A stretch of DNA of 64,000 nucleotides from an uncultured Verrucomicrobiaceae bacterium. Lineage in GTDB: Bacteria > Verrucomicrobiota > Verrucomicrobiia > Methylacidiphilales > CAYYVW01. Both the position numbers and the translations under genes were made by a program. The DNA is taken from contig CAYYVW010000001.1 of NCBI GenBank assembly GCA_964473925.1, forward strand, positions 38,974 to 102,973. Reading direction: 5' to 3'. Within the stretch, counting starts at the first letter, position 1; each line of letters starts with the position of its first letter. Below the pieces are notes generated by a model that saw only the letters and a program-made list of their open reading frames with translations, was not told where the DNA came from and searched no databases. Positions 25,336 through 41,941 of this stretch are shown here, one piece after another.

Positions 25336-25372
25336 CGCTTCGAATTTTTAATGCATGCTCATCAATCAGCTT

Positions 25373-25699
25373 ATGCGTTTCACCAAAACCACGTGCGCTG
25401 CGATTGCCGTTATGATGGCGCTGGTTTTCTGCGGGCAGGTGGCGGTTTCGTATGCGTTGCAGCTGGGTGTGATGCAGGATGCGTGCGAGCAGTCCTGCAA
25501 TGGGCAAGAGTCCAAGCAGGATGCAAAGGCTCCGCACTGCGCTTGTGTGTGCCATGTTCTTTCGATTGCCGCATTGGCAGACCCGAGTGCGATTCAGGTG
25601 ACGTCGCTCAATCGTGCTACTCGATGTGTTCCGGCTTTGGTTGAAACTCTGCCGGACGGCCCCGTTCGGGCCATTGAAGTGCCGCCTCAATTAGGCTAA
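25373..25699 (+). CDS. Small Cys/His-rich leader-like protein upstream of czcCBA
   Basis: Hydrophobic N-terminus, HCACVCH, C-terminal PDGPVRAIEVPPQLG; start may be 25355 or 25373. Confidence 0.7.
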   Translation: MRFTKTTCAAIAVMMALVFCGQVAVSYALQLGVMQDACEQSCNGQESKQDAKAPHCACVCHVLSIAALADPSAIQVTSLNRATRCVPALVETLPDGPVRAIEVPPQLG

Positions 25700-25741
25700 A
25701 CGCCGACCGCTGGCCCTTTGCCAGTGCGTCTTTTTGTCCAC

Positions 25742-25768
25742 AAGCCCTCCCTGCATGGGGGGTGCTTT
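25742..25768 (+). terminator. Attenuator-like hairpin between leader ORF and czcC
   Basis: AAGCCCTCCC-TGCAT-GGGGGGTGCTT stem with one bulge and one G:U, short U-tract. Confidence 0.4.
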
Positions 25769-25786
25769 CACTTCAACGTTTTAACC

Positions 25787-27112
25787 ATGAATCAACGCTT
25801 ACATTTTTTACGGCTGCAGAATGTCTGCCGATGCTTCGGCGCGGCGATGCTGTTGGCTTTAGCCGTGCAAGGAGCCGTGGCGGTTGAGACGCGCCAGCAC
25901 GATTTATTGGAAGCGATGGTGAGCACGGTTTTGGAGCGCAACACGGAGCTTCAATCTTATGCCGCCGAGGTGGATGCGATGCGTGGCCAGCGTCGTCAGG
26001 CGGGAGCATGGAAAAATCCGGAAGTGACGGTCAGCGGAGGAGCGCGCGCGTTTTATGATTATGGGCAGAACGTCACGAATAAGGGACATGTGGTGGATGT
26101 TTCCGTGCAGCAGACGTTTGAGTTTCCGGGGAAGGGCTCGTTGCGCAAGGCGATTGCGGAGCGCAATATTCAATTGGCACAGTTGGGGCTCGAGCAATTT
26201 AAACTGTCGTTGGCCGGACAGGTGAGGCACTTGGCGCTGAAGCATCACGTGGTGTCTGAAAGTCTGATGGCTGCGCAAGAAGTTCAGAGTCGTAGTGCGG
26301 CGCTCATTGCACTTTTAAAAGATCGCCCGGCGGCCGGTTCGGCTCCGTATTTGGAGATGCGTGTGCTCGAAGGGACGCTGATGGAACTGCGCCAAAACAT
26401 GGCGGAGCTGGCGCAGGAGCGGGAGGAGTCGCGGATTCAACTCAACAGTCTGCTCGGGTTGCCGCTGGAGCAGCCGTTGTCACTAAACCTGAACAGTGAA
26501 TTGCCTTCGCAGATTCCGCCGCTTCAGGATTGGCTGACGGCGGGATTGTTGAAGAATTTTCAGCTGCGCATCCGATTAGTGGAATTGGATCGGGCACAGG
26601 ATGAAATCAGCGCTGCGAAGCTGGCGGCGGCGCCGGACTTTCAGATCGGGCCGTTTTTCAGCCGACAAGATGCCCGTCAGGAAGAGGCGGGGGTGAAAAG
26701 CGGCGAGAAAGAAACCAATGTGGGGCTTTCGCTGACGATGGCATTGCCGCTTTGGAATCAAAATCAAGGGAACGTGGACGCAGCGCGGGCACGGCAGCAA
26801 CAGACACAAGCATTGGCGGCGGACGCGCGGCGGAAAGTGGAAGCGGAGATCGCCGCCCGAATGCGCGCGTATCAGATTGCGCGAGCGCAATGCGGTGAGG
26901 CGCCGCTGGAGACGGTTCGCCAGCTGCAGGCCGCCGCGGAGTTGGCCGACCGCCAATATCGTCAGAGTGTTATTCCAGTGCAGCTATTTCTGGAAACGCA
27001 GCGCGCGTGGCTCAATGCGCAGCGCGGGCGCTCGAGTGCTTTGGAACGCGGCTGGGCCAATCTTCTGGACCTTCAGCTGCTCACGGGAGGTTCGGTCAAG
27101 TTCACGCCATGA
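25787..27112 (+). CDS. czcC: TolC-family outer-membrane channel of heavy-metal efflux (CzcC-like)
   Basis: QAGAWKNPEV, QTFEFPGK...R, LPLWNQNQGNV repeats; first gene of the CBA operon. Confidence 0.88.
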   Translation: MNQRLHFLRLQNVCRCFGAAMLLALAVQGAVAVETRQHDLLEAMVSTVLERNTELQSYAAEVDAMRGQRRQAGAWKNPEVTVSGGARAFYDYGQNVTNKGHVVDVSVQQTFEFPGKGSLRKAIAERNIQLAQLGLEQFKLSLAGQVRHLALKHHVVSESLMAAQEVQSRSAALIALLKDRPAAGSAPYLEMRVLEGTLMELRQNMAELAQEREESRIQLNSLLGLPLEQPLSLNLNSELPSQIPPLQDWLTAGLLKNFQLRIRLVELDRAQDEISAAKLAAAPDFQIGPFFSRQDARQEEAGVKSGEKETNVGLSLTMALPLWNQNQGNVDAARARQQQTQALAADARRKVEAEIAARMRAYQIARAQCGEAPLETVRQLQAAAELADRQYRQSVIPVQLFLETQRAWLNAQRGRSSALERGWANLLDLQLLTGGSVKFTP

Positions 27113-27861
27113 AAAAATTCATCGGTATTTTAACGCTCATGATTTTGGTGTTAGCGGGATGCACGGCGAAAAAGCCGGAAGCTGTCGATCCTCACGCTCA
27201 CGAGGAAACGGGTGTGCAGCATGTCGCGGAGAAAGGTCTGCTGATTCCAGACAAAACGCAGCGGGCTATTGGATTGAAAATAGCAGAAGTCACCAAGCGC
27301 AGCATGACGCAGCAATTGAACGTTGCGGCGCAAGTCTATCGCGCTGCGGCTGAATCCAATGGCTCTTCCGCCAAGGGAAATGCCGCCGCGAGCGCGCTGC
27401 TGCCCAAAATGGATGCGGTGAAGATCCCGGAGCAAGCAGCCGCACAAATCCGTCTACGAGGCAAAACTGGTGTAACCGCATTGCCTGGCAAAGTAACACG
27501 GTTGGACCGGCAGCTCGAATCGGTTACTGGACAAACCGAAATTTTGTTGGAGATCACCGATCCTGCGGGACAGCTGCGAGTGGGTGATTTTGTCGATGTA
27601 GAGTTTGCATGGGGTGATAAGAGTTCCGAGGCATTGGTAATTCCCCGCACAGCGCTTCTACGCAGTGCGCAGGGAACGTTTGCGTACGCTCAGCGCGAGG
27701 GCCATTTTCTGCGAACGGCCGTCACAGTGGGAGCCGCGAGCGCCGGCGACGTGGAAATCCGGGAAGGGTTGACCGCTGGCGAGCAAGTGGCAGATGGCGC
27801 GGTCGAAATGCTGTGGCTGATTGAACTGCAGATGGTACAGGGAGGCGGACACTCGCATTAA
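27109..27861 (+). CDS. czcB: Periplasmic adaptor lipoprotein (short CzcB-like)
   Basis: Lipobox LAGC, HAHEE, LRVGDFVDVEF, VIPRTALL, VEIREGL..GEQV; 250 aa. Confidence 0.82.
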   Translation: MKKFIGILTLMILVLAGCTAKKPEAVDPHAHEETGVQHVAEKGLLIPDKTQRAIGLKIAEVTKRSMTQQLNVAAQVYRAAAESNGSSAKGNAAASALLPKMDAVKIPEQAAAQIRLRGKTGVTALPGKVTRLDRQLESVTGQTEILLEITDPAGQLRVGDFVDVEFAWGDKSSEALVIPRTALLRSAQGTFAYAQREGHFLRTAVTVGAASAGDVEIREGLTAGEQVADGAVEMLWLIELQMVQGGGHSH

Positions 27862-27864
27862 TTT

Positions 27865-30800
27865 ATGCTGAATCGAATCTTGGAATTTTCCGTCCGCCAG
27901 CGCGTGCTCATCGTGCTGGCAACTTTGGTGCTGATTGCGGCCGGCCTTTGGTCGGCGATGCGGCTCCCCATCGACGCTGTGCCCGACATCACCCACGTGC
28001 AGGTGCAGCTCAATACGGCTGTTTCTGCCTATGCGCCTGAGGAAGTTGAGAAGCTGGTCACCTATCCTATTGAAATGGAGATGGCGGGCATTGAGGGCAT
28101 GGAGCAGTTGCGCTCTCTTTCTAAGTTTGGGTTGTCGCAGGTGAATCTGATTTTCAAAGACGGGACGGATATTTACCGGGCACGGCAGCTGGTGAGCGAA
28201 CGCCTGCAAAATCTTCAGGAGAAGCTGCCTGCCGGAACGATCCCAAAGCTGGCTCCGATTACAACGGGACTAGGAGAAATTTACTACTATCTCCTCGATT
28301 ACAAGAAGGAGGCCGCCGATAAGCCCGCCACACGCCGCGAGCAGTTGATGGAGCTTAAGCTGGTTCAGGATTTTGTCGTAAAGCCGCAGCTGCGAATGGT
28401 GCCCGGCGTGGCGGAGGTCAATACGTCTGGTGGCCATGAGAAACAAATCGTGGTGATGCCCGATCCCACAAAACTCATGAGCGTTGGCCTGACGTTCATG
28501 GAAATCGCACAAACGGTCAAAGAAAACGTTGAAAACGCAGGCGGCGGCGTAGTGCAAGTGGGCGGGCAACAGCTTGCAGTCCGGGCAGTTGGGCGCGTAC
28601 AAACAGTCGAAGAGATTGCCTTAATACCACTTAAACTTCGAGCAGGAGCGGATCCGTTACGTGTGCGCGATGTTGCCGAGGTTGGCATTGGGTCTAGCCT
28701 TCGCACCGGGGCTTCTACTTATAACGGACAGGAAGCGGTGATTGGCGCAGCCCTGATGCTCACGGGTGAAAATAGCCGCGTTGTCGCCAAAGCCGTCGGT
28801 GAAAAAATCCAAGCAATTGCTTCCCACCTTCCGTCGAATGTGGAAATCACTCCGGTGTATGACCGTAGTGTGCTGGTCAATCGTACGATCCACACCGTGG
28901 AGAAAAATCTGTTTGAGGGAGCGATCCTCGTTGTCGTTATTCTGTTCCTGCTTTTGGGGAATGTGCGCGCCGCGATCATTGTGGCGCTGGCCATTCCACT
29001 TTCGATGCTCTTTGCGATTACGGGCATGGTGCAAAACCGCATCTCTGGGAATTTGATGAGCCTGGGTGCAATTGATTTTGGTCTTATCATCGACGGTGCG
29101 GTGGTGATGGTGGAAAACATCATTCGTCACCTCGCACATCGACAGAAAGCGCTGGGGCGGACGCTGAACGCGCGTGAGCGCATGGAAGAGGTTCTGATTT
29201 CCGCAAAGGAAGTAGCCAGCCCGATGTTCTTTGGCGTCGCGATTATAACGATTGTCTATTTCCCGATTCTTGCTCTAACCGGCATTGAAGGAAAAATGTT
29301 CAAGCCGATGGCGTTGACGGTGATTTTTGCATTGATCGGAGCCCTGGTTCTAGCATTGACGTTGATGCCCGCCCTTTGCTCCTACTTCTTAAGTGGGCGC
29401 ATCGAAGAAAAGGAGGGCTTCTTAGTCCGACAGGCCAAGCGGTTTTATGCGCCACTGCTGGACTTTGCGTTGCGCAATCGTGCAATGGTTCTGCTTGCAG
29501 CCGCGATTATTTTTTTGACCAGCTTGTTTGTTTTTCAACGGCTTGGAGCGGAGTTTATTCCGCAATTGGATGAAGGCTCATTTGCCACTCACATGATGCG
29601 AGCCACGAGTATCGGATTGGATAAGGCCGTGGAGATGCAAGAGCGGAGTGAGGCGTTCCTCTTAGAAAATTTCCCTGAAATCAGCTATACGTTTTCTCGC
29701 ATTGGCACGGGCGAAATTGCCATTGACCCAATGGGACCGAACGTTTCCGACACTTACATTTTCTTTAAGCCAGAAAGCGAATGGAGAAAGGTGAATGGGC
29801 GCAGCGTGACGAAAGACGAATTGAGTCGGATGATGGCGCAAGGCTTGAACGGGCATGTTCCGGGTCAAGCCTATCTCTTTTCGCAGCCGATTGAAATGCG
29901 CTTTAATGAAATTCTGGAAGGCACGCGGGCTGACATTGCGGTGAAGGTGTTTGGGGAGAGCTTTGAAGAAATTGAACGCATTGCAACTGAGACGAAGGAG
30001 ATTCTAGAGAGCGTGCCTGGCGCGGGTGATGTGGAGTTTGACAATATCGGCAAGGCGCCCGTGCTGGAAATCACTCCGGACCGTGCGGCGCTGGCAAAAT
30101 TCAACGCGCATGCCGCTGAAATTAACACCGTGGTTTCTGCCGCCATTGCCGGAGAAGAGGCGGGCATGTTAGTGGAGGGGAACCGGCGCTATCCGATTGT
30201 CGTCCGGCTTCCGGATCGCTTGCGGGAGGAGATTGATTCGCTCAAGCAATTGCCGCTGCGTCCCAGTGAGCACGCGGGCTTAATTACGCTGGGCCAAGTG
30301 ACGCAAGCCCGAGTGTCGGATCAGGTGGCGGTCATTGCACGGGAAGCGGGCCAGCGCCGGGCGGCGATTATGGTGAACTTGCGGGGGAGGGATGTGGAAG
30401 GTTACGTCACTGAAGCGCAGCAAAAGATCGCTGAACACATCAAGTTGCCTCCGGGCTATAGCATTGAGTTTGGCGGACAGTTTAAGAACTTGCAGGAAGC
30501 GCGCGCGCGACTGGCCGTTGTGGTGCCGCTTGCACTTGCGCTTGTTTTTGCGCTGATCTTTATTGCATTCAGTAGCGTGCGGCAGGCGGCGCTTATTTTC
30601 GTGTGCGTTCCGCTTGCTGTTACTGGCGGCGTCTTCGCTCTGGCGGTGCGCGGCATGCCTTTTAGCATTTCGGCGGGCGTTGGATTTATTGCGCTTTCGG
30701 GGATCGCGGTCCTCAACGGCATTATGCTCATCAGCTTCATCAATCAGTTGCGGCGCGAAGGATGTGCGCTGCGTGAAGCCGTCATCGAAGGCACGCTGAC

Positions 30801-30996
30801 TCGACTCCGCCCTAAGCTGATGACCGCGCTGGTCGCGAGCCTGGGGTTTCTGCCAATGGCTTTAAGCCACGGCGCCGGCGCTGAAGTTCAGCGGCCGTTG
30901 GCAACGGTCGTGATTGGGGGGATCATCACTTCCAGCCTGCTGACGCTCGTCATTCTGCCGATTCTATATGATTGGATGGAAAGCAAGCGGTCATGA
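27865..30996 (+). CDS. czcA: CusA/CzcA family heavy-metal RND permease
   Basis: LPIDAVPDIT, MSLGAIDFGLIIDGAVVMVEN, RLRPKLMTA..ASLGFLPMA, GAEVQRPLATVVIGG. Confidence 0.95.
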   Translation: MLNRILEFSVRQRVLIVLATLVLIAAGLWSAMRLPIDAVPDITHVQVQLNTAVSAYAPEEVEKLVTYPIEMEMAGIEGMEQLRSLSKFGLSQVNLIFKDGTDIYRARQLVSERLQNLQEKLPAGTIPKLAPITTGLGEIYYYLLDYKKEAADKPATRREQLMELKLVQDFVVKPQLRMVPGVAEVNTSGGHEKQIVVMPDPTKLMSVGLTFMEIAQTVKENVENAGGGVVQVGGQQLAVRAVGRVQTVEEIALIPLKLRAGADPLRVRDVAEVGIGSSLRTGASTYNGQEAVIGAALMLTGENSRVVAKAVGEKIQAIASHLPSNVEITPVYDRSVLVNRTIHTVEKNLFEGAILVVVILFLLLGNVRAAIIVALAIPLSMLFAITGMVQNRISGNLMSLGAIDFGLIIDGAVVMVENIIRHLAHRQKALGRTLNARERMEEVLISAKEVASPMFFGVAIITIVYFPILALTGIEGKMFKPMALTVIFALIGALVLALTLMPALCSYFLSGRIEEKEGFLVRQAKRFYAPLLDFALRNRAMVLLAAAIIFLTSLFVFQRLGAEFIPQLDEGSFATHMMRATSIGLDKAVEMQERSEAFLLENFPEISYTFSRIGTGEIAIDPMGPNVSDTYIFFKPESEWRKVNGRSVTKDELSRMMAQGLNGHVPGQAYLFSQPIEMRFNEILEGTRADIAVKVFGESFEEIERIATETKEILESVPGAGDVEFDNIGKAPVLEITPDRAALAKFNAHAAEINTVVSAAIAGEEAGMLVEGNRRYPIVVRLPDRLREEIDSLKQLPLRPSEHAGLITLGQVTQARVSDQVAVIAREAGQRRAAIMVNLRGRDVEGYVTEAQQKIAEHIKLPPGYSIEFGGQFKNLQEARARLAVVVPLALALVFALIFIAFSSVRQAALIFVCVPLAVTGGVFALAVRGMPFSISAGVGFIALSGIAVLNGIMLISFINQLRREGCALREAVIEGTLTRLRPKLMTALVASLGFLPMALSHGAGAEVQRPLATVVIGGIITSSLLTLVILPILYDWMESKRS

Positions 30997-32735: not shown

Positions 32736-34901
32736 TTACCACTTCCACTCAATCCCGCCGTAAAAGCTGATGCCGTTGCCGGGGTAGAATTGTGCGCTGT
32801 CGGCTCCGAGGGCGTCGGCAATGACGCCGGTGGTGGCGGCGTATTCTTTATCACCCAGATTGCGTCCTTCTAAAAAAATGGAGAATCCTTTTTGTGAGCG
32901 ATACCCAGTGCGCATTCCGAAAATCACGTATGGGTCGGCGTAGAAGCTGTTGGCAAAATCGATTGGGTACTTGCTGATCGAGCACTCGATGTTGGGGCCG
33001 ATGTAGAAACCGCAGGGGTGTTGGTAGACGAGCTCTGCTCGGTAGTAGTGCTCTGGGAAGCCCGCGAGCTGGTTGCTACCGTAGACTGGATCGCTATCAA
33101 AATAAAAATCACTCCAGTTATAGATTTGTCGCAGAATGAGCTGATCGCTTTCGGCAGGTTGATCGGCGCGCGTAAATAGATTGTTGAATAAGCGCGCTTC
33201 CACGCCCAACTCAATACCTTGATGGTGCGTTGCCGATCCGTTGATCGTGCCCAGGGGTGCGCCGCCGGCATCGTTTAGGCTGAGGAGTTCATTCTCTATC
33301 CAGGCGTGATAGAAAGCAGCGTCCCACGAAATTCGGTCCCATGTGCCCCGTGAGCCGATCTCAAGGGTGGTGGCGCTTTGAGCTTCCAGATTTTGCATGA
33401 CAACGCTGGGCAGGCGATTGGGGAAAATCGGTGGGCCCGCGGATGGGCGGATAACCTTAAGCTCACCGAAGCTGGGCGGCTCAAAACTGCGGCTGGCGTT
33501 GGCAAAGCAGGTGATCTGAGGGGTGAACTCATATCGGATGCCGATTTTGGGGTTAAAGCCGTAGTAGTCTTGCTCGCCGGAGCCGTCGCCATCTGCCAGA
33601 AAGTTGTCTTTCGAAATGCGCTGTGCGTAGACGAATTGCGTGCCGACGATCAAAGCGAGGCGATCGGTTAGGTAGTGATCGTTTTGCACGAACGCTTCAA
33701 AGTTAAAGGCTTCTTCGATTCCTTCGGCGAATTTACGCCCGCGCGCTTCTGTTCCGTTGAGATTTTCAAAACGGACGTCTTCCCCGATGCTGCCGCTGGG
33801 CGTGATGCCCATCCGGAGCTGGTTGCGTCTGCCGAAGAGTTCCGTGTCGCGCGTGTAGTTGACTGTTCCCCCGAAGTTGTTGGTCAAAAGATCGATGGTG
33901 CCGGGACCGGTGGCGAAGGTGGGGGTAAGGATATTAAAGATCGGGTGATCGAGGTCTTTGTACGTCCAAAAGAACCCAGCTTCGATTTTTCCTTCTTCCA
34001 GCAGCAGCGTGGTTTTATTTGCCAGTCGGAACGTCTCATAATCGCGCTTATCCAGACGCAGTGCGTTGCCGGCGGAGGCTTGCCGCGGATCCTGCTGCAA
34101 TTGCAATTTGGTGAGCGTGCCGGGCAGCTCGGAATCACTTTGTGCGTAGTTGAAGAAAAATCGTGTCTCGAGGGCATCAGTCATTTTCCAACCAAGGTTT
34201 GTATTGAGCCGCTGATTGTTTTGCTGGCTGTAGTCTCGATACCCGTCGACGGCGTGATTGGTGAGGGAGAAGTAATAATCTACGGGGCCTATCGTATGCC
34301 CGGAGCTGAGCTGCTGCGTCCAACTGCCGTAGCTGCCCATTTCCAGCCGTGCTTGTGCGAGGGAGGCATCCCGGCCGGTAGGAGAGACAAAATTGACAGC
34401 TCCACCGAGGGTGGAGGATCCGTATTCAAGGGCATTAGCGCCGCGGAACACTTCGACATATTGGTAGGCAAGTGGTTCCAGCGCTTGCATGTCGAACGCG
34501 CCGTCGGCTTCGTTGAGCGGCAGGCCATCTTGTAGGAGTTTTAGGCCTCGGCCGTGAAAGGTGCGTTGCAGGCCTGAGCCGCGAATGGAGATGCGGGCTT
34601 CTTCCGAGCCGAAGCGGTTTTGAACAAACACGCCGGGCGTGTAGTCAAAAATTTCCTTCAAGGTTGCGGCGCTTCCTTTTTTATAATCGTCGGCGAGAAT
34701 AAAGTTGGTCCCGCCGGCGATTTTGCTCAGTTGTTCAGCTGCGGTGCCGGAGCTTGATTGGGTGATGGATTCGCGCTTGTCGTTAACGACGACTTCTTCG
34801 AGAGGAATGGGTTGAGATTGAGAAAATGCGGAAGCGCTCGCGGCTACCCAGAAGAGGGCAAGCATGGCAGTTCGTATTATAGTTTTGCTAAAAAAATTCA
34901 T
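32736..34901 (-). CDS. TonB-dependent receptor (YncD-like type)
   Basis: TonB box LEEVVV, plug PGVFVQNRFGSEEARISIRGSG, VEVFRGANALEYGSSTLGGAVN, terminal EWKW. Confidence 0.92.
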   Translation of the reverse strand: MNFFSKTIIRTAMLALFWVAASASAFSQSQPIPLEEVVVNDKRESITQSSSGTAAEQLSKIAGGTNFILADDYKKGSAATLKEIFDYTPGVFVQNRFGSEEARISIRGSGLQRTFHGRGLKLLQDGLPLNEADGAFDMQALEPLAYQYVEVFRGANALEYGSSTLGGAVNFVSPTGRDASLAQARLEMGSYGSWTQQLSSGHTIGPVDYYFSLTNHAVDGYRDYSQQNNQRLNTNLGWKMTDALETRFFFNYAQSDSELPGTLTKLQLQQDPRQASAGNALRLDKRDYETFRLANKTTLLLEEGKIEAGFFWTYKDLDHPIFNILTPTFATGPGTIDLLTNNFGGTVNYTRDTELFGRRNQLRMGITPSGSIGEDVRFENLNGTEARGRKFAEGIEEAFNFEAFVQNDHYLTDRLALIVGTQFVYAQRISKDNFLADGDGSGEQDYYGFNPKIGIRYEFTPQITCFANASRSFEPPSFGELKVIRPSAGPPIFPNRLPSVVMQNLEAQSATTLEIGSRGTWDRISWDAAFYHAWIENELLSLNDAGGAPLGTINGSATHHQGIELGVEARLFNNLFTRADQPAESDQLILRQIYNWSDFYFDSDPVYGSNQLAGFPEHYYRAELVYQHPCGFYIGPNIECSISKYPIDFANSFYADPYVIFGMRTGYRSQKGFSIFLEGRNLGDKEYAATTGVIADALGADSAQFYPGNGISFYGGIEWKW

Positions 34902-35011
34902 AAATTGTTCCCGTTGCACGCGGGTAAGCGTGTGTTGCGACGTTTGTGGAAACGTCAGAGGTGGTGATCCCCGCTAAAAGAGCGAGGGGCTTGCGCTTAA
35001 AAAAGAAGCGC

Positions 35012-35413
35012 CTATGCGGCAATAGGAGGGGGCGTTACGGGCGGAAACGCATCGAAAGAATAGAAAGTCGAAACGGCGTACGGCCAATCCAACACTTGGA
35101 AGGAGGGGGGCGGTAGCGTGAATTTTTTTGCAGTAAAGAATGGCTCGGATTTTTTCTCGAGCTTGAGGAGAGGAAGCTGCTTTTCTTCCTGCTGCTTGGC
35201 GGTTTGAATTTTTTTACACATGCCGCAAGGGTGCTGACCGTCGAAGGTTTTGCCCAAACCATCTTCTACGCCGTATTGTTTGGAGTATTCGATGGCCATG
35301 CGGGTCCAGGCGAAAGCTTGGAGCGTCACCCAGTGCACGCCTGAGAGATGAAGCATCGCGATTGTGCAGAACAGATACCCGACCCAACGCATGGCTAAGC
35401 CGGACGATCTCAT
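35012..35413 (-). CDS. Small membrane-anchored CxxC protein with Pro-rich C-terminus (leader-like)
   Basis: HWVTLQAFAW..M...KTFDGQHPCGMC...FPPVTPPPIAA; start 35413 or 35392. Confidence 0.75.
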   Translation of the reverse strand: MRSSGLAMRWVGYLFCTIAMLHLSGVHWVTLQAFAWTRMAIEYSKQYGVEDGLGKTFDGQHPCGMCKKIQTAKQQEEKQLPLLKLEKKSEPFFTAKKFTLPPPSFQVLDWPYAVSTFYSFDAFPPVTPPPIAA

Positions 35414-35578
35414 GTTCTTGTTTTCTTTGCAATAGTCCAGGGGAGGGATTCTGTCATCCGAATAGTTCGAAAGACCACAAGCGAGCGACAGCAAGCTATC
35501 GCAAAAGAAACGCAAGCTGTGGGTAGCCGGTTTGAGGCCAGTTCCGTAGATTGCGCCACCTTCATCCAAATCTCATTC

Positions 35579-38038
35579 ATGAAATTGCTCTCGTTGTACG
35601 CAAAACTCTGCATCTTTTCCCTGATGGTGACGCTGCTGGGCTCAGCCGTGTGGGCGCAAGAAGCCCCAGGAACCGCTCAACCAAAAGAGAAGGCCGGCGC
35701 ACAATCAGCGGCCAAAACGGAAGCGACGGCCGCGGCGCAATCCACCAAAGCAAAAGATCCGCGTGAAGCGGCTGCGGGCGAAGCGCTCAAGAAGCCGATT
35801 TTAAATGAAGGCGTCGCGCCAAGCCGCCTGGGCGAGGTTGTCGTCAGTGCCACACGCACCGAGCAACAGAAGCGGGATGTAGCGGGCAGTGTTTCTTCTT
35901 ATGATAAAAATGATCAGCAGATGGTCCTGGCTTCGGATTACCGCGACTTGGTGAGCGAAGAGCTTGATGTAAGCACGGTTGGGAATGTCGGCGGGCAGGG
36001 CCCGGCGGGGCACTCCGGCAACGGTCTGCAAAGCTATAATATCCGCGGTATCGATGGAAACCGGGTGCTGATGCAAACCGATGGCATCCGGCAGCCGGAT
36101 CAGTACACGTTTGGCGGCACGTATAGCATCGGCCGAAATTATCAAGATCTCGAATCGCTTAAGCGGGTGGAGATTCTGAAGGGATCGGCCTCAAGCTTGT
36201 ACGGCAGTGACGCGATTGGCGGCGTGGTGACGTATTTGACAAAAGACCCGGCTGACTTCCTCGATGGGAAGCCCCAGCCGTGGTACGCGGGCTTCAAAAC
36301 TTCTTTTGACAGTGCCAACTTGGAATTTGCCGAAACGCTGACGGGGGCTGTTCGTTCGGGCCCGGTCGATCTATTGGCAGTATACACGTATCGTCATGGT
36401 GAAGAGGCGGACAACAAAGGAAACATCCGCTCCAATCCCTTGAGCTTTGAGGGACAAAACGTCCTGGCTAAGGCGGTGTGGCAGGCCAATGAGTTCAACC
36501 GCTTTACGCTGACGGCAGAATATTTTCACCGCGATCTAGATGCCTTTCTTGCAAACCGGGTGGGAATCTTTTTAGTCGATCCGATGTTTGGACCGCAACT
36601 CAACCAGAGTTCGGTCACGCAAGATACGACGATTGACCGAGCGCGCGTGAGTATTGGTCATAGATTTGAGCGGCCAGATGCAACGCCGCTTTTTGATTCC
36701 TTCAGCTGGCAGGGCTACTACCAGCCCAGCGAGCAAACCGAAGGAATTGAAGAGCATTATACGCGTCAGTCGACTTTCCCTTTTCCCGGTGCGGTAGTTC
36801 CGTACCGCCGTGTCTTTGACCGGAGTTTTTCCAACGATATCGCGGGCGGAACATTCCAGTTTGAAAAGAGATTTGAAGCTGCGGACTGGACGCATCGGTT
36901 GATTTACGGCGCGGATATTTCCGCCGCGCACTTGGAGCGAAATGTCGACGGCTTTATCCAGAATTTAATCACTAATGTGGTTTCCAAGAGCTTCGGCACA
37001 GCCCCCAACCCGGGCGGTCCGTACCTGATGCCGTACAAAGAGATTCCCGATTCGGACGTTTTCCGTCTCGGATTGTACGTGCAAGATCAAATTGATTACG
37101 GAGCGCAGCAGGCGTTCTCAATAGTTCCGGGATTGCGGTTGGATTACTACGACCTCTCTGTGGATAATGACCTTCTTTACACCAAGGTTGTAGGCACGAG
37201 CGGGACGGGCTTCCGTGAATGGTCGCTTTCGCCCAAGCTGGCGATGATCGGTCGTCCGGCGGACAATTGGACGGTGTACGGCCAATTTGCACAGGGCTTT
37301 CGCTCGCCGACGACTGAAGAGCTCAATGCGGTCTTCAACAATCCAAGCTCTTTTTATCAAGTGATAGGCAACCCAAATTTGAAATCTGAAACGAGCTATA
37401 ACTTTGAAGTGGGCGTGCGCACTGAGCTGCCATGGGTTCAGATGAGCTTGGCGGGATATTACAACTACTACCAAAACTTCATCAATCAGCAGACGTTCGT
37501 TGGGTTCGGTCCAGGCGGCATTCAAGTCTTTCAGTCGACCAACATCGATCAGGCGGAGATCTTCGGAGCGACGCTCACAACCGAGTGGCCGCTGGGGATT
37601 TATCGGGAAGATTTGGAGGGGCTTTCCTTCCTGTTTGGATTCGCGGTGGCGCAGGGGAACGATCTACAAAACGGCCAGCCTTTGGATTCGGTCGACCCGT
37701 GGAAGCTGCGGACGGGCTTGCGGTATCGCCGGGACAACTGGGGCGTCGATCTCATCCACACGTACGTGGGCGCCAAAAGCCGCGTCTCGAACAACGTGGT
37801 CAATCAATTCCACACGCCGGAATTTAATACGGTCGACGTGGTGGGACACTATAAGATCAACGAGCACGCGACGATCTCGCTGGGCATTTATAATCTGACG
37901 GATGAGAAATATTGGATGTGGCAGGATGTCCGCGGGATCAATAATGTGGGCAACGCGCCGACCGGACTGGGTAATCAGATTGACTTGTTTACGCAGCCGG
38001 GGATTAATTTCCGGACATCGGTGACCATTTCTTTTTAA
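35579..38038 (+). CDS. TonB-dependent heme/hemoglobin receptor (HmuR/ChuA-like)
   Basis: EVVVSATR, NIRGIDGNRV, GFRSPT (FRAP-like) and GNPNLKSE (NPNL) motifs; terminal F; heads the hemS-hmuTUV operon. Confidence 0.92.
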   Translation: MKLLSLYAKLCIFSLMVTLLGSAVWAQEAPGTAQPKEKAGAQSAAKTEATAAAQSTKAKDPREAAAGEALKKPILNEGVAPSRLGEVVVSATRTEQQKRDVAGSVSSYDKNDQQMVLASDYRDLVSEELDVSTVGNVGGQGPAGHSGNGLQSYNIRGIDGNRVLMQTDGIRQPDQYTFGGTYSIGRNYQDLESLKRVEILKGSASSLYGSDAIGGVVTYLTKDPADFLDGKPQPWYAGFKTSFDSANLEFAETLTGAVRSGPVDLLAVYTYRHGEEADNKGNIRSNPLSFEGQNVLAKAVWQANEFNRFTLTAEYFHRDLDAFLANRVGIFLVDPMFGPQLNQSSVTQDTTIDRARVSIGHRFERPDATPLFDSFSWQGYYQPSEQTEGIEEHYTRQSTFPFPGAVVPYRRVFDRSFSNDIAGGTFQFEKRFEAADWTHRLIYGADISAAHLERNVDGFIQNLITNVVSKSFGTAPNPGGPYLMPYKEIPDSDVFRLGLYVQDQIDYGAQQAFSIVPGLRLDYYDLSVDNDLLYTKVVGTSGTGFREWSLSPKLAMIGRPADNWTVYGQFAQGFRSPTTEELNAVFNNPSSFYQVIGNPNLKSETSYNFEVGVRTELPWVQMSLAGYYNYYQNFINQQTFVGFGPGGIQVFQSTNIDQAEIFGATLTTEWPLGIYREDLEGLSFLFGFAVAQGNDLQNGQPLDSVDPWKLRTGLRYRRDNWGVDLIHTYVGAKSRVSNNVVNQFHTPEFNTVDVVGHYKINEHATISLGIYNLTDEKYWMWQDVRGINNVGNAPTGLGNQIDLFTQPGINFRTSVTISF

Positions 38039-38079
38039 TTTCTCCTCTCATTTACCCTTACCTCCACCCAGGACATGTT

Positions 38080-39129
38080 ATGAAAACTGACACGCAACAA
38101 ACCCTCGCCACGCGTTGGCAAGAACTTCAAACCGCAAATCCCAAGATGCGCATCCGCGATGCCGCCACACAACTCGGCGTCAGCGAAGCGCAGTTGCTGG
38201 CCACGCGGTGTGGCAATGGCGTCACGCGTTTGCAGGGTCCGTGGGATAAACTCATCGCCGAGTTCCCCAAGTTCGGCCGCGTGATGTGTCTGACGCGCAA
38301 CGAAGCGGCGGTGCATGAGCGTTACGGTGATTTTCAGAAGATCGATTTCTTTCATGGCATGGGGCAGGTCGTCGGGCCAGACATTGATCTGCGCCTCTTC
38401 ATGAATCACTGGAAGCACGGTTTTGCGGTTGTCGACCAAACCAAAGAGGGCGAGCGCCAAAGTCTCCAGTTTTTTGATGCGGCTGGCAATGCCGTGCATA
38501 AGGTCTACTTGCAAAAAGAGAGCAACGCTTCGGTGTACGCCGATTTAGTGAGAGGTGCGCGTGCTGAAGATCAATCGACAGAGCAGGCGGTGGAGGCTCC
38601 GGCGGCCAAAGCGGCGCCGCTTCCCGATGCCGAGATAGATGTCGCGGCGTTCCGCCAGGCTTGGCTCGAGATGAAAGATACGCACAGCTTCTTCATGTTG
38701 CTGCAGAAGCACCGTGTCGTGCGCAATCAGGCAATGCGCCTGGCGCCCGAAGGGTACACGCGTCAGCTTGGCCTCGATCAACCACGCAAGATGCTTGAGC
38801 GCGCGGCCGAAGCAGGCCAGCCGATCATGGTGTTCATCGGTAACCCCGGCTGCCTGCAAATTCACACCGGCCCCGTCAAGAACATCAAAATGTTCGGCGA
38901 GGATTGGCTCAATATTCTCGATGACGATTTCAACATGCACCTCAATCAGCCGCTGATTGATTCGGTCTGGTTTGTCCGTAAGCCGACGGTGGATGGCGAG
39001 GTTACTTCGGTGGAGCTCTACGACAAGGCGGGCGAAAATGTCGTCACGTTCTTCGGCAAGCGCAAGCCGGGTGAGAAGGAAGATCCGCGCTGGCGTGAGC
39101 TCGCTTCCAGTTTGGAAGGAAAGAAGTAA
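38080..39129 (+). CDS. hemS: Heme-degrading/trafficking protein HemS/HmuS
   Basis: RIRDAA..LGVSEAQL, MCLTRNEAAVHE, DLRLF, THSFF, GCLQIHTG, FNMHL; duplicated HemS domain. Confidence 0.93.
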   Translation: MKTDTQQTLATRWQELQTANPKMRIRDAATQLGVSEAQLLATRCGNGVTRLQGPWDKLIAEFPKFGRVMCLTRNEAAVHERYGDFQKIDFFHGMGQVVGPDIDLRLFMNHWKHGFAVVDQTKEGERQSLQFFDAAGNAVHKVYLQKESNASVYADLVRGARAEDQSTEQAVEAPAAKAAPLPDAEIDVAAFRQAWLEMKDTHSFFMLLQKHRVVRNQAMRLAPEGYTRQLGLDQPRKMLERAAEAGQPIMVFIGNPGCLQIHTGPVKNIKMFGEDWLNILDDDFNMHLNQPLIDSVWFVRKPTVDGEVTSVELYDKAGENVVTFFGKRKPGEKEDPRWRELASSLEGKK

Positions 39130-39131
39130 GC

Positions 39132-40010
39132 ATGAGCTGCTTCTCTTTTCTGCGCGCTGTTTTCAACATCTTTGGCATTGCAGCTGCGATGCCAATGCTG
39201 CTGGGCGCGGCGTCGGCGGCGGATGCTCCTCGGCGCATCGTTTCAACGGGCGGCCCTGTCACTGAAATTGTGTATGCCCTAGGTGCGCAGCGCGATCTGG
39301 TAGCGGTGGACTCTTCCAGCACCTATCCGCAAGCGGCGACGCGTTTACCAAAGATTGGTTATCAGCGGATGCTGTCCGCGGAAGGGGTGTTCGGCTTGAA
39401 GCCAACGCTCGTCTTGGCTTCGGAAGAAGCGGGCCCGCCGGCCGTGATCGATCAGCTTAAAAAATCGGGCGTGCATATTGTCATTGCAACAGCCGAGCAC
39501 ACCGTCGCTGGAGCGCAGTCTAAAATTACGACCATTGCCCGGGCCTTGGGCAAAGAGCGTGAAGGGCAGGCGCTGTGCGTTCGCCTTGAACAGCAAGTGA
39601 AAGAAGCTCATGCCCGCATTGCCGACAAGGCGTCGGGTTCCAAGCCGCGTGTGGTCTTTATTTACGCCCGCGGACCGGGAGTGATGAATGTCGCGGGCAC
39701 GGGTACGGCGGCCGATGCGATCATCGCATTGGCCGGAGGCGTCAATGCGGTGTCCGATTACAGCGGGTATAAACCACTGACGCCCGAGTCGCTCACAACA
39801 GCCGCACCGGATGTTATTTTGGTCCCGCTGCACGGTTTGGACAGCTTAGGCGGCAAAGAAGGCTTGATGCGTCAGCCAGGCGTTGCGATGACGCCGGCAG
39901 GCAAAAATGGTCGGATTGTTGCGATGGATGATCTTTTGCTCCTAGGGTTTGGTCCGCGACTGGGCGAGGCAGTTTTAGAATTATCCGAAAAACTGCACTT
40001 TTCTAAATAG
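39132..40010 (+). CDS. hmuT: Heme ABC transporter periplasmic binding protein
   Basis: RIVSTGGPVTEIVYALG, IGYQRMLSAEG (heme-ligand Tyr), LLGFGPR. Confidence 0.9.
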   Translation: MSCFSFLRAVFNIFGIAAAMPMLLGAASAADAPRRIVSTGGPVTEIVYALGAQRDLVAVDSSSTYPQAATRLPKIGYQRMLSAEGVFGLKPTLVLASEEAGPPAVIDQLKKSGVHIVIATAEHTVAGAQSKITTIARALGKEREGQALCVRLEQQVKEAHARIADKASGSKPRVVFIYARGPGVMNVAGTGTAADAIIALAGGVNAVSDYSGYKPLTPESLTTAAPDVILVPLHGLDSLGGKEGLMRQPGVAMTPAGKNGRIVAMDDLLLLGFGPRLGEAVLELSEKLHFSK

Positions 40011-40070
40011 GCTGCCGAAGGCTTCCTGCCGGGTTTGGCTGCGGCGCGGGCTTGTGGTTTTATTTTGCTT

Positions 40071-41123
40071 ATGAACACGCGCTTTGCTCCAGCTTCGTTG
40101 TGGATCTTGTTTGGCGCGATGATTGGGGCGATGTTGGTATCGTTGTGCGTAGGCGCAGCGTCGCTGAGCTTGGAACAAATTTTTTCGATCCTGGCAAACA
40201 AAGCACATTTACAAATCGGATCATTCAACGCAGCGTACACTTCCAGCGAGAGCGCGCTACTGTGGGACATCCGTCTGCCGCGGTTGCTGTTGGGCGTGCT
40301 CGTCGGCGGCGGGTTGGCGGTGGCAGGAGCGGCGTTGCAAGGGCTCTTTCGCAATCCGTTAGCCGATCCCGCGCTTATTGGGGTCTCCGGCGGAGCGGCA
40401 GTCGCGGCAGCAGCATGCTTTGTTTTGGGCGGAGCGCTCTTCAAACAGGTCAACTCCGCCTTTACGTTGATGGTCGTGCCGCTCGTCTCTTTCCTCGGAG
40501 GATTCGGCCTAGTACAGGTCATCTGGCGCATTTCGCAGCGGGAAGGGCGCACGCAGGTGCACACGATGCTCCTGGCAGGGATTGCGCTCAACGCGCTCTG
40601 CGGCGCGGGGATCGGCGTGCTGACGTTCATGGCCAGCGACGCGCAACTGCGCAGCATCACCTTTTGGAACTTGGGCAGCTTAGGCGGCGCGACGTGGCCG
40701 ATCGTCGGTATTCTTTCACTCTTCGTTCTCATTCCTGTCGGTTGGCTATTGAAAAAGTCTCGCGCGCTCAATGCGCTCTTGCTGGGCGAAGCGGAAGCCG
40801 GACATCTGGGCGTGTCGGTGGAGCAGCTCAAGCAGCGCATCATTCTCTATACGGCACTCATCGTCGGGGCGGCGGTTTCATTTGTTGGCATCATCGGATT
40901 CATCGGCTTGGTTACGCCGCACCTCATTCGCCTTTGGAAAGGGCCAGATTACCGCGCGCTTTTTCCGCACACTTTCTTGCTCGGAGCGTTTCTGCTGATT
41001 CTCTCCGATCTCGGAGCACGACTGATCGTGGTTCCTGCCGAATTGCCGATCGGTGTGATGACGGCGCTTTTGGGCGCGCCGTTCTTTATTTGGATGCTGT
41101 TGCGGGAGCGGGAATCTTTATGA
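40071..41123 (+). CDS. hmuU: Heme ABC transporter permease (FecCD family)
   Basis: IRLPRLLLG, QGLFRNPLADP, LGEAEAGHLGV, GIIGFIGL..PH, ELPIGV.TA..GAPFF. Confidence 0.93.
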   Translation: MNTRFAPASLWILFGAMIGAMLVSLCVGAASLSLEQIFSILANKAHLQIGSFNAAYTSSESALLWDIRLPRLLLGVLVGGGLAVAGAALQGLFRNPLADPALIGVSGGAAVAAAACFVLGGALFKQVNSAFTLMVVPLVSFLGGFGLVQVIWRISQREGRTQVHTMLLAGIALNALCGAGIGVLTFMASDAQLRSITFWNLGSLGGATWPIVGILSLFVLIPVGWLLKKSRALNALLLGEAEAGHLGVSVEQLKQRIILYTALIVGAAVSFVGIIGFIGLVTPHLIRLWKGPDYRALFPHTFLLGAFLLILSDLGARLIVVPAELPIGVMTALLGAPFFIWMLLRERESL

Positions 41124-41941
41124 GCAACGCGGTAGAGGCTTCCCGGAGTGCGTTAGCGCTTGAAGCGTCTGGTATTAATTTTCAAGCGGGTGGGCGATTA
41201 TTATTAGAAGGGGTCTCCTGCCGTATTGAGCCGGGCAAGGTGGTGGCGCTCGTCGGACCCAACGGAGCCGGGAAGACGACGCTTCTGCGGGTTCTCTCTG
41301 GTGAACTCACTCCACATGCGGGGAGCGTTACGCTCAACGGTGAGGGGATCGATCAATATTCCGCAACACGACTGGCACTTCACCGAGCGGTTTTACCGCA
41401 GAGCTCGACACTGGCCTTTCCGTTTCTGGTGGAAGACGTTGTGCTCATGGGCCGCGCGCCACACGTTCAAGGGCATGAAACGGCCCGCGATATTCAAATT
41501 GCGCGGGAAGCCATGCAAAATGTTGAAGTGGAACATTTGGTAGGTCGCAACTACTTGACGCTTTCGGGCGGCGAGAAGCAGCGGGTTCATTTGGCGCGCG
41601 TTTTGGCCCAACTCTTGGGAGCGCCGGAGCCGCATTACTTGCTCTTAGATGAACCGATCGCAAATTTAGATTTGGCACATCAGTGTCAGCTAATGCGACT
41701 TTTGCGTAAGCAAGCGCGCGCCGGTGCGGGTATTTTTATCATTCTGCATGATCTTAATTTTGCGGCTCGGTATGCCGACGAAGTGATCATCCTTGCAAAA
41801 GGAAAAAAAGTGGCGAGCGGGCTGCCAACAGAAGTGCTCAATGAAGCGCTGTTACGAGAAGTCTTTGCTATTGAAACGCATATTTTTAGAGGCTTTGATG
41901 CATCCCAGCCGTCGAGTTTTTATATTGTGCCAATGGACTAG
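41120..41941 (+). CDS. hmuV: Heme ABC transporter ATP-binding protein
   Basis: GPNGAGKTT, LSGGEKQRVHLARVLAQ, LLLDEP, LHDLN; ATG at 41120 coupled to the hmuU stop. Confidence 0.93.
   Translation: MSNAVEASRSALALEASGINFQAGGRLLLEGVSCRIEPGKVVALVGPNGAGKTTLLRVLSGELTPHAGSVTLNGEGIDQYSATRLALHRAVLPQSSTLAFPFLVEDVVLMGRAPHVQGHETARDIQIAREAMQNVEVEHLVGRNYLTLSGGEKQRVHLARVLAQLLGAPEPHYLLLDEPIANLDLAHQCQLMRLLRKQARAGAGIFIILHDLNFAARYADEVIILAKGKKVASGLPTEVLNEALLREVFAIETHIFRGFDASQPSSFYIVPMD

Follow-up and report, generated by a model that had tools for sequence, protein, structure and literature searches.

What does a small gene immediately upstream of a TonB-dependent receptor gene do in an uncultured Verrucomicrobiaceae bacterium? 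We investigated this question in a 64,000-nucleotide (nt) stretch of its genome, hereafter the window (GenBank assembly GCA_964473925.1, contig CAYYVW010000001.1, positions 38,974 to 102,973), in which a minus-strand open reading frame (ORF) for a 133-aa protein lies at 35012-35413, ahead of the receptor gene at 32736-34901. We consider it likely, at a probability of roughly 60%, that this ORF is a cis-acting metal-sensing arrest-peptide leader that works like CruR and CutF, and that the metal is most likely copper. Descriptions of such leaders date only from 2022-2025 and link them to the Pfam family DUF2946, mostly in Proteobacteria and Bacteroidota. CruR has a CXXC, a RAPP motif, and a spacing of 45 ± 2 residues, and arrests the ribosome as long as it senses no copper; since the arrested ribosome stands in the way of Rho, the receptor is made only at low copper (PMC9426467). 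CutF, with a CxxxC and a PPP, is exported co-translationally, and periplasmic copper prolongs its PPP pause against elongation factor P (EF-P); the ribosome, while paused, melts a stem-loop that covers the following ribosome-binding site (10.1101/2022.11.11.516240; 10.1101/2025.02.05.636593).

The putative leader gene and its receptor

A first-pass annotation, made from the letters of the sequence, had described at this locus a small protein with a hydrophobic span, an HPCGMC motif, and a PPVTPPPIAA end, followed by three hairpins and a TonB receptor. All of these elements were borne out. Translation of 35012-35413 (minus strand) gives a protein, MRSSGLAMRWVGYLFCTIAMLHLSGVHWVTLQAFAWTRMAIEYSKQYGVEDGLGKTFDGQHPCGMCKK...FPPVTPPPIAA before the stop codon, in which an uncharged hydrophobic span is followed in order by HPCGMC, a Lys/Glu-rich stretch, a low-complexity stretch, and a Pro-rich end. 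TPPP occupies residues 127-130, and the CxxC-to-PPP spacing is 61 residues. An alternative start is an ATG at 35392. The parts of the leader and the downstream receptor are:

35012-35413, minus strand: leader gene, 133 codons plus stop (translation; homologues, most of them full-length against the query)
35303-35386, minus strand: hydrophobic membrane span, approximately residues 10-37, with the motif G-x-H-W-x-x-L-Q-x-x-A-W (conservation; AlphaFold2 (AF2) model)
35216-35233, minus strand: HPCGMC, residues 61-66, a Cys-x-x-Cys and presumed metal site (C63 and C66 invariant)
35015-35044, minus strand: PPVTPPPIAA, C-terminal Pro motif and presumed ribosome-arrest site 3 residues before the stop (P130 invariant)
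32736-34901, minus strand: TonB-dependent receptor, 721 aa, the presumed controlled gene (Plug and barrel domains)

The receptor contains a Plug (PF07715, 9e-17) and a TonB barrel domain (PF00593, 1.3e-36), and its signal peptide favours a start at ATG 34901 over GTG 34919, which gives a spacer of 110 nt after the leader. It appears to be only a distant relative of YncD/PqqU: the best NCBIfam match is PqqU (NF041535) at 160 bits, far below the cut-off of 1200, and the best relatives in the PDB are 6v81 (YncD) and 9c4o (PqqU) at E 2e-34. The copper-receptor family TIGR01778 was absent among its 25 best NCBIfam families.

We noted that the public gene call for the leader (P0002, 35012-35299, minus strand) begins at Met39 and yields a 95-aa protein from which the conserved membrane span has been dropped; automatic annotation thus shortens the window's member of the family described below. 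Pfam and NCBIfam scans of the 133-aa protein returned no match. A word-indexed homologue search with this single protein returned only the window's own 95-aa gene call; relatives emerged only from an exhaustive HMMER search. A related-locus search with the single protein found one Chthoniobacterales locus.

An unnamed Verrucomicrobiota family and its downstream genes

The exhaustive search recovered 1,873 representatives (50% identity clusters) at E ≤0.001, and 555 at E ≤1e-10, with the CxxC and the poly-Pro end conserved, in agreement with the lineage-specific leader family that the first-pass annotation had proposed. The majority of representatives are 120-145 aa long and match the window protein end to end; the genes span 123-143 codons. 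All representatives named by their source are labelled "hypothetical", with named hosts that include Verrucomicrobium, Verrucomicrobiales, Candidatus Udaeobacter, and Chthoniobacterales. Among sampled Verrucomicrobiota, 89 of 401 genomes and 52 of 185 genera carry the family, frequently in two to three copies, and as far as seen it is confined to this phylum. Pfam and NCBIfam scans of 60 relatives assigned no family.

In an alignment of 60 members, Q32, A35, W36, C63, C66, and P130 are invariant, and G25, W28, M39, T56, F57, G59, P62, P125, and P128 are at least 90% conserved. The family consensus reads ..GGHWxxLQxVAWxxMxxxYS..KTFDGxHPCxLC..(variable)..PPxPPPR, with two hallmarks, GGHWxxLQxxAWxxM within the membrane span and KTFDGxHPCxLC at the CxxC. 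Nearly all members keep a PPP or PVP triplet. In most of them the stop comes 2-8 residues after the last PPP, and the distance from the second Cys to this PPP is 57-68 residues (modes 58 and 64). Flanking the 26-residue uncharged core, the preceding segment has a net charge of +1.8 and the following segment -0.9. This bias fits an N-terminus inside and a C-terminus outside in 206 of 219 members, so that, with topology assigned by charge bias alone, the CxxC would face the periplasm.

The family is distinct from DUF2946, with which the first-pass annotation had suggested a comparison. Neither the window protein nor any of the 60 members matched PF11162 at E ≤1, and hhalign against DUF2946 proteins of the same phylum returned a probability of 0.7%, with only the CxxC aligned. 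The comparison set was small, at eight sequences, because a homologue search with the genome's own DUF2946-like protein (see below) returned no matches. By sequence comparison, the family is not a detectable member of DUF2946, as it fails on the profile, the RAPP motif, and the spacing. True DUF2946 is itself rare in the phylum (8 of 201 Verrucomicrobiota genomes), and Verrucomicrobia go unmentioned in the published surveys of DUF2946 and CutF-like proteins.

An AF2 model built with the family alignment has confident helices over residues 4-78 (predicted local distance difference test, pLDDT, >90), namely helices 4-23 and 26-47, while residues 80-133 are unstructured. No solved structure resembled the model by fold, or the family profile by sequence. 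Such a model could also be expected of a stable, membrane-anchored periplasmic protein that binds metal or acts in thiol redox chemistry as an accessory of the outer-membrane transporter, for example by receiving copper and handing it on; PPxPPPR would then be an interaction motif, and any RNA pairing would merely couple the translation of two operon genes. We regard this explanation, the main alternative to a leader, as possible but rather doubtful. The conserved and confidently folded first 80 residues, the conserved polar His, Gln, Trp, and Met inside the span, and the periplasmic placement of the CxxC domain by charge bias are all in its favour. However, residues 80-120 are variable and disordered and only a short Pro motif next to the stop is kept, which resembles an arrest peptide and would be unusual for an interaction domain.

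We next surveyed the genes downstream of the family at 88 loci of the phylum, by taking the next same-strand gene at each locus and clustering these genes; downstream genes and their start codons were assigned by the longest frame and a signal-peptide heuristic. The downstream genes are:

24 loci: MetA-like barrels, 320-390 aa, mostly with Cys-rich N-termini; 17 reach PF13557
20 loci: TonB receptors of the window's type, distant YncD/PqqU relatives
18 loci: TonB receptors of the copper-receptor clade (TIGR01778)
2 loci: other TonB receptors
7 loci: Met-rich (MQGGMxMPM) exported proteins, 265 aa
4 loci: PEP-CTERM proteins
4 loci: extracytoplasmic function (ECF) sigma factors
2 loci: TonB
2 loci: DUF1559 pilin-like proteins
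2 loci: beta-propeller proteins (YNCE/lactonase-type)
3 loci: unclassified singletons

Approximately three quarters of the 88 downstream genes encode outer-membrane transporters, TonB receptors among them at 40 loci; the window receptor clusters with 19 other receptors found downstream of family members. Scores of the copper-clade receptors against TIGR01778 (cut-off 472) are 729 bits for one and 197-227 bits for the others. Among the 24 MetA-like barrels, one (L008) has a NosL domain. On long contigs, one further member heads the row family gene, 270-aa ORF, CopC, x, CopD, and another the row family gene, receptor, ExbB, ExbD, TonB, PepSY_TM. The first-pass annotation had named, as an outcome that would speak against its proposal, homologues that are not preferentially upstream of metal transporters. 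This outcome did not occur in the 88-locus survey: the gene just downstream of a member is preferentially one for an outer-membrane transporter, copper receptors among them, and the long contigs add copC/copD and receptor-ExbBD-TonB-PepSY_TM sets. Copper is the best guess for the family because of its copper receptors, CopC/CopD, NosL, and Met-rich proteins.

The co-occurrence of the family with transporters, CopC/CopD, and NosL would also suit an accessory protein, yet the diversity of its partners, from receptors and small barrels to ECF sigma factors, TonB, and pilin-like proteins, fits a portable regulator better. Since family members precede ECF sigma factor or TonB genes, the survey suggests that the leader is able to gate regulators and energisers besides transporters.

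Several individual loci deserve mention. At L029, L030, L048, and L051 (genus g3, of the same order as the window organism), and at L045 and L047, an ECF sigma factor gene (spacer approximately 170-210 nt) or a TonB gene is downstream; the family members that precede ECF or TonB genes come from a small-genome genus of the window's order. The Met-rich 265-aa exported family (L021-L024, L016, L043, and L049) matched neither Pfam nor NCBIfam; its members probably bind Cu(I) in the periplasm. Among the closest relatives of the window protein in the phylum genome survey, L100 (2495-2953, plus strand; G039, same order) keeps PPPVPPPR but extends 26 residues beyond it, and is followed by a small excisionase-like helix-turn-helix gene and no transporter; here a rearrangement or an insertion seems to have disrupted the typical gene order.

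The same genome holds two more leader-type genes. A paralogue of the new family (L002 1315-1704, minus strand; G000:C3, approximately 101.6 kb) encodes 129 aa ending in PDTPPPRLLSFA before the stop, and lies 59 nt ahead of a gene for a 333-aa MetA-like outer-membrane barrel whose mature N-terminus begins with CDAC. In addition, a classical DUF2946-type leader of 130 aa (L003 1492-1881, minus strand; G000:C5, approximately 115.1 kb) has an ECPLC and an ARAPPIAG end, and scores 22.9-23.4 bits against the PF11162 cut-off of 23.7. It lies approximately 107 nt before another TonB receptor gene. One organism therefore holds both leader types, RAPP and PPxPPPR, and a RAPP leader ahead of a TonB receptor in the same genome indicates that this design is in use in the window organism.

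Spacer RNA and its pairing with the downstream start region

All three hairpins noted in the first-pass annotation are present in the minimum free energy (MFE) fold of the minus-strand RNA, and are enclosed by a long-range helix between the end of the leader and the region just ahead of the receptor start. The elements of this fold are:

35016-35027, minus strand: 5' arm of the long-range helix, in the leader's last codons (..P I A A) (MFE fold)
34993-35011, minus strand: hairpin 1, GCGCUU/AAGCGC, right after the stop codon, 35006-35011 paired with 34993-34998 (MFE fold)
34969-34987, minus strand: hairpin 2, CCUCGCU/AGCGGGG, 34981-34987 paired with 34969-34975 (MFE fold)
34939-34956, minus strand: hairpin 3, GACGUUU/AAACGUC, 34950-34956 paired with 34939-34945 (MFE fold)
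34909-34921, minus strand: 3' arm of the long-range helix, GGGA-containing, 8-20 nt upstream of the receptor start (MFE fold)

A 141-nt segment folds better than 200 of 200 dinucleotide shuffles (z = -3.77), and z for the structure of the window spacer ranges from -3.8 to -4.1. No U run follows any of the three hairpins, and a terminator scan of the minus-strand spacer was empty. The hairpins resemble components of a fold that masks the start site more than they resemble terminators.

Spacers of the family are 40-330 nt long (median approximately 125 nt) and are not alignable between loci. Compared with dinucleotide shuffles, they are far more structured as a class (mean z -2.17; 42 of 86 below -2, and none above +1). 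They are also rich in C and poor in G (33.8% vs 23.6%; C exceeds G in 74 of 86), a skew greater than that upstream of the leader. These structured spacers raise the alternative that the RNA is itself the sensor, as a riboswitch or a protein-binding attenuator, independently of leader translation. We consider this very improbable: strong structure in the window and across the family would be expected of such an RNA, but spacer sequence and length are not conserved, whereas the protein motifs are, and a terminator is missing. Furthermore, an Rfam scan of 34700-35700 found no riboswitch and no family at E ≤1 apart from a sub-threshold JUMPstart match on the opposite strand.

For an arrest-peptide leader, it matters where the start region of the downstream gene pairs. 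In base-pair probabilities from 78 loci, the start region (-20 to +5) favours the final ~24 nt of the leader ORF (0.09-0.14 pairs per nt), compared with approximately 0.03 deeper in the leader ORF and near 0 in the first 40 nt of the spacer. Because C-rich Pro codons could alone yield such a signal, we recoded the last 11 codons synonymously with the codon usage of each locus. Real tails paired with their own start region at -13.46 kcal/mol, as compared to -11.06 kcal/mol for recoded tails (p = 5.5e-10); by chance 4.3 of the 86 loci should rank at or below the 5th percentile, and 20 did. When the recoding test was applied to windows 60, 120, and 180 nt upstream, no effect was seen (p = 0.08, 0.66, and 0.73, respectively). 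At some loci (e.g. L096, L075, and L022), perfect complements of 8-10 bp span the leader stop codon and the Shine-Dalgarno sequence of the next gene. A permutation of tail/start pairs across loci was also significant, but we discounted it as it is confounded by genome G+C.

The selection at the RNA level for tail/start pairing, limited to the last codons, and the long, structured, C-rich spacers are features that weigh against an accessory protein. They could also be read as ordinary, unregulated translational coupling or mRNA stabilisation, in which the leader has an unrelated function, the hairpins are processing or stability elements, and no metal is sensed. The end of an upstream gene commonly pairs with the next start site in operons, terminator-like U runs are absent, and the pairing of the window locus is not individually significant, all of which would agree with plain coupling. 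Nevertheless, this explanation is improbable, since it accounts neither for an invariant CxxC combined with a near-invariant poly-Pro end a set distance from the stop, nor for the consistent association with copper genes and outer-membrane transporters, nor for the parallel with the experimentally studied designs of CruR and CutF (PMC9426467; 10.1101/2025.02.05.636593).

Known leaders, a proposed mechanism, and the genomic setting

The closest parallel in targets is CruR (Bp2923, Bordetella pertussis, DUF2946/PF11162; Roy et al. 2022, PMC9426467). Like the window leader, CruR is the product of a small gene with an N-terminal hydrophobic segment, a CxxC, and a Pro motif near the stop, and lies directly upstream of a TonB-dependent receptor gene across a long spacer (162 nt for CruR, 110 nt in the window). 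Genes for OprC-type copper receptors (TIGR01778) and PepSY_TM genes are found downstream of relatives of both, and the receptor...PepSY_TM row of one family member has the gene order of cruR-bfrG-bp2921 in Bordetella (PMC9426467). The C-rich, G-poor spacers of the family are compatible with a Rho loading site, as for CruR. By contrast, the window family ends in PPxPPPR and CruR in RAPP, and CruR still works when its signal peptide is missing, whereas the membrane span of the family is strongly conserved and its CxxC is placed outside the cytoplasm by charge bias. The two also differ in the Cys-to-Pro distance, 57-68 residues in the family as compared to 45 ± 2 in CruR.

CutF (Rhodobacter capsulatus, cutFOG; Ozturk et al. 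2023, 2025) is closer in sensor design. A C-terminal PPP is common to CutF and the family; the N-terminus of CutF is exported or targeted to the membrane and its Cys pair is periplasmic, as the charge bias suggests for the family as well. The start region of the CutF target takes part in an RNA structure that a ribosome paused at PPP would open, and a comparable fold is predicted in the window. Unlike the window family, CutF has a CxxxC and belongs to DUF2946. Its RNA element is a single stem-loop, whereas the predicted masking helix in the window spans the whole spacer around three hairpins. CutF controls a detoxifying oxidase that is turned on by copper, but the family's targets are mostly importers or outer-membrane channels; the sign of the response may therefore be opposite to that of CutF. 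The family would thus join the PPP and membrane-side sensing of CutF with the targets and long spacer of CruR. In cells, CruR and CutF themselves are undetectable or quickly degraded. SecM, VemP, MifM, and the RAPP-type ApdA/ApdP also pair an N-terminal signal for export or insertion with an arrest motif at the C-terminal end, close to the stop, and the start site of the next gene is exposed when they stall. These peptides, however, monitor export and control Sec or YidC components, with no CxxC and no link to metal genes.

From these parallels, the leader could work as follows. The sequence analysis itself establishes the gene with its motifs, the family and its downstream partners, the structure of the spacers, and the complementarity of leader tail and start region; stalling, the metal that is sensed, the sign of the response, the function of the hairpins, and a part for EF-P or Rho are inferences. 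The nascent leader would insert co-translationally by its conserved membrane span, N-terminus inside, such that HPCxxC reaches the periplasmic face at about the time the ribosome meets the PPxPPP codons ~60 residues later. The time that the ribosome spends on these prolines ahead of the stop would then depend on the metal or redox state of that Cys site. A dwelling ribosome would keep the tail/start-region helix open and cover the start of the C-rich spacer, possibly shielding a Rho loading site; the receptor could then be translated, and might escape Rho. Upon departure of the ribosome, the multi-hairpin fold would close and shut off the receptor. For importers, metal would be expected to shorten the pause, although the sign of the response is not readable from sequence. 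A broader proposal, which we put forward tentatively, is that the family arose independently of DUF2946 as a portable "gate" across the Verrucomicrobiota, in which a conserved membrane helix and a periplasmic CxxC would form a nascent-chain metal sensor and a poly-Pro pause would open a start-masking RNA fold, with targets that also include small outer-membrane channels, ECF sigma factors, TonB, and pilin-like sets.

Several observations weigh against a metal-sensing arrest-peptide leader. The conservation and confident folding (pLDDT >90) of the N-terminal 80 residues go beyond what a signal peptide needs and fit a stable functional protein. The Cys-to-Pro spacing is looser than the 45 ± 2 residues reported for DUF2946 and has two modes. 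At the RNA level, the register of the closing helix shifts with the segment that is folded, the start-proximal stretch then pairing with earlier Pro-Val codons; the window's own tail/start pairing is at the 16th percentile of the recoding test, suggestive but not significant alone; and most downstream genes do not have a clear Shine-Dalgarno sequence. Some family members are not the first of their gene row. Lastly, the window receptor is YncD/PqqU-like and not of the copper-receptor type.

Upstream of the leader, the window continues into a haem-uptake operon (35579-41941, plus strand) that diverges from the leader gene:

35414-35578, unstranded: divergent control region, 165 nt, common to the leader and the plus-strand haem receptor operon (ORF map)

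A promoter scan of this region found no sigma-70-like promoter, and an inverted-repeat search found no inverted repeat or operator; it may hold a common metal-dependent operator. The operon encodes a haem/haemoglobin-type TonB receptor (TIGR01786, 371 bits), a HemS/ChuX haem-degrading protein, a periplasmic binding protein, and a 629-aa ORF. The C-terminal third of this ORF is an ATP-binding cassette ATPase domain; the N-terminal part had no Pfam match and is possibly a fused permease.

Further along the window is a czcCBA-type efflux system, where the first-pass annotation had placed a second leader-type architecture. An ORF of that description is indeed present at 25355-25699 (plus strand): it encodes 114 aa with a signal-peptide-like N-terminus, a Cys-rich core (HCACVCH), and an EVPPQLG end, and stops 18 nt before the czcC-like outer-membrane efflux gene (25718-27112). 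It had no Pfam match and, from these features, looks like a CzcI/CutF-type leader. The czcC-like gene is followed by a 284-aa ORF (27007-27861), a membrane-fusion subunit by position alone, and then by a 1,043-aa ORF (27865-30996) taken as the resistance-nodulation-division (RND) pump. With the haem operon and the czcCBA-type system nearby, the neighbourhood is devoted to metal traffic.

The window locus thus belongs to a second family, unrelated in sequence to DUF2946, of approximately 1,900 clusters in about one fifth of the sampled Verrucomicrobiota genomes, a phylum where true DUF2946 is rare. If the leader does sense metal by arrest, this would be the first function for an unnamed family, and would predict how the outer-membrane uptake of copper, or of another metal, is switched in this poorly studied phylum. 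MetA-like Cys-rich barrels, Met-rich periplasmic proteins, and the PEP-CTERM and DUF1559 sets would likewise be flagged as metal-related. The two families would then offer a natural comparison of the Pro motifs (RAPP and PPxPPPR) and the spacings that couple a ligand on the membrane side to the ribosome.

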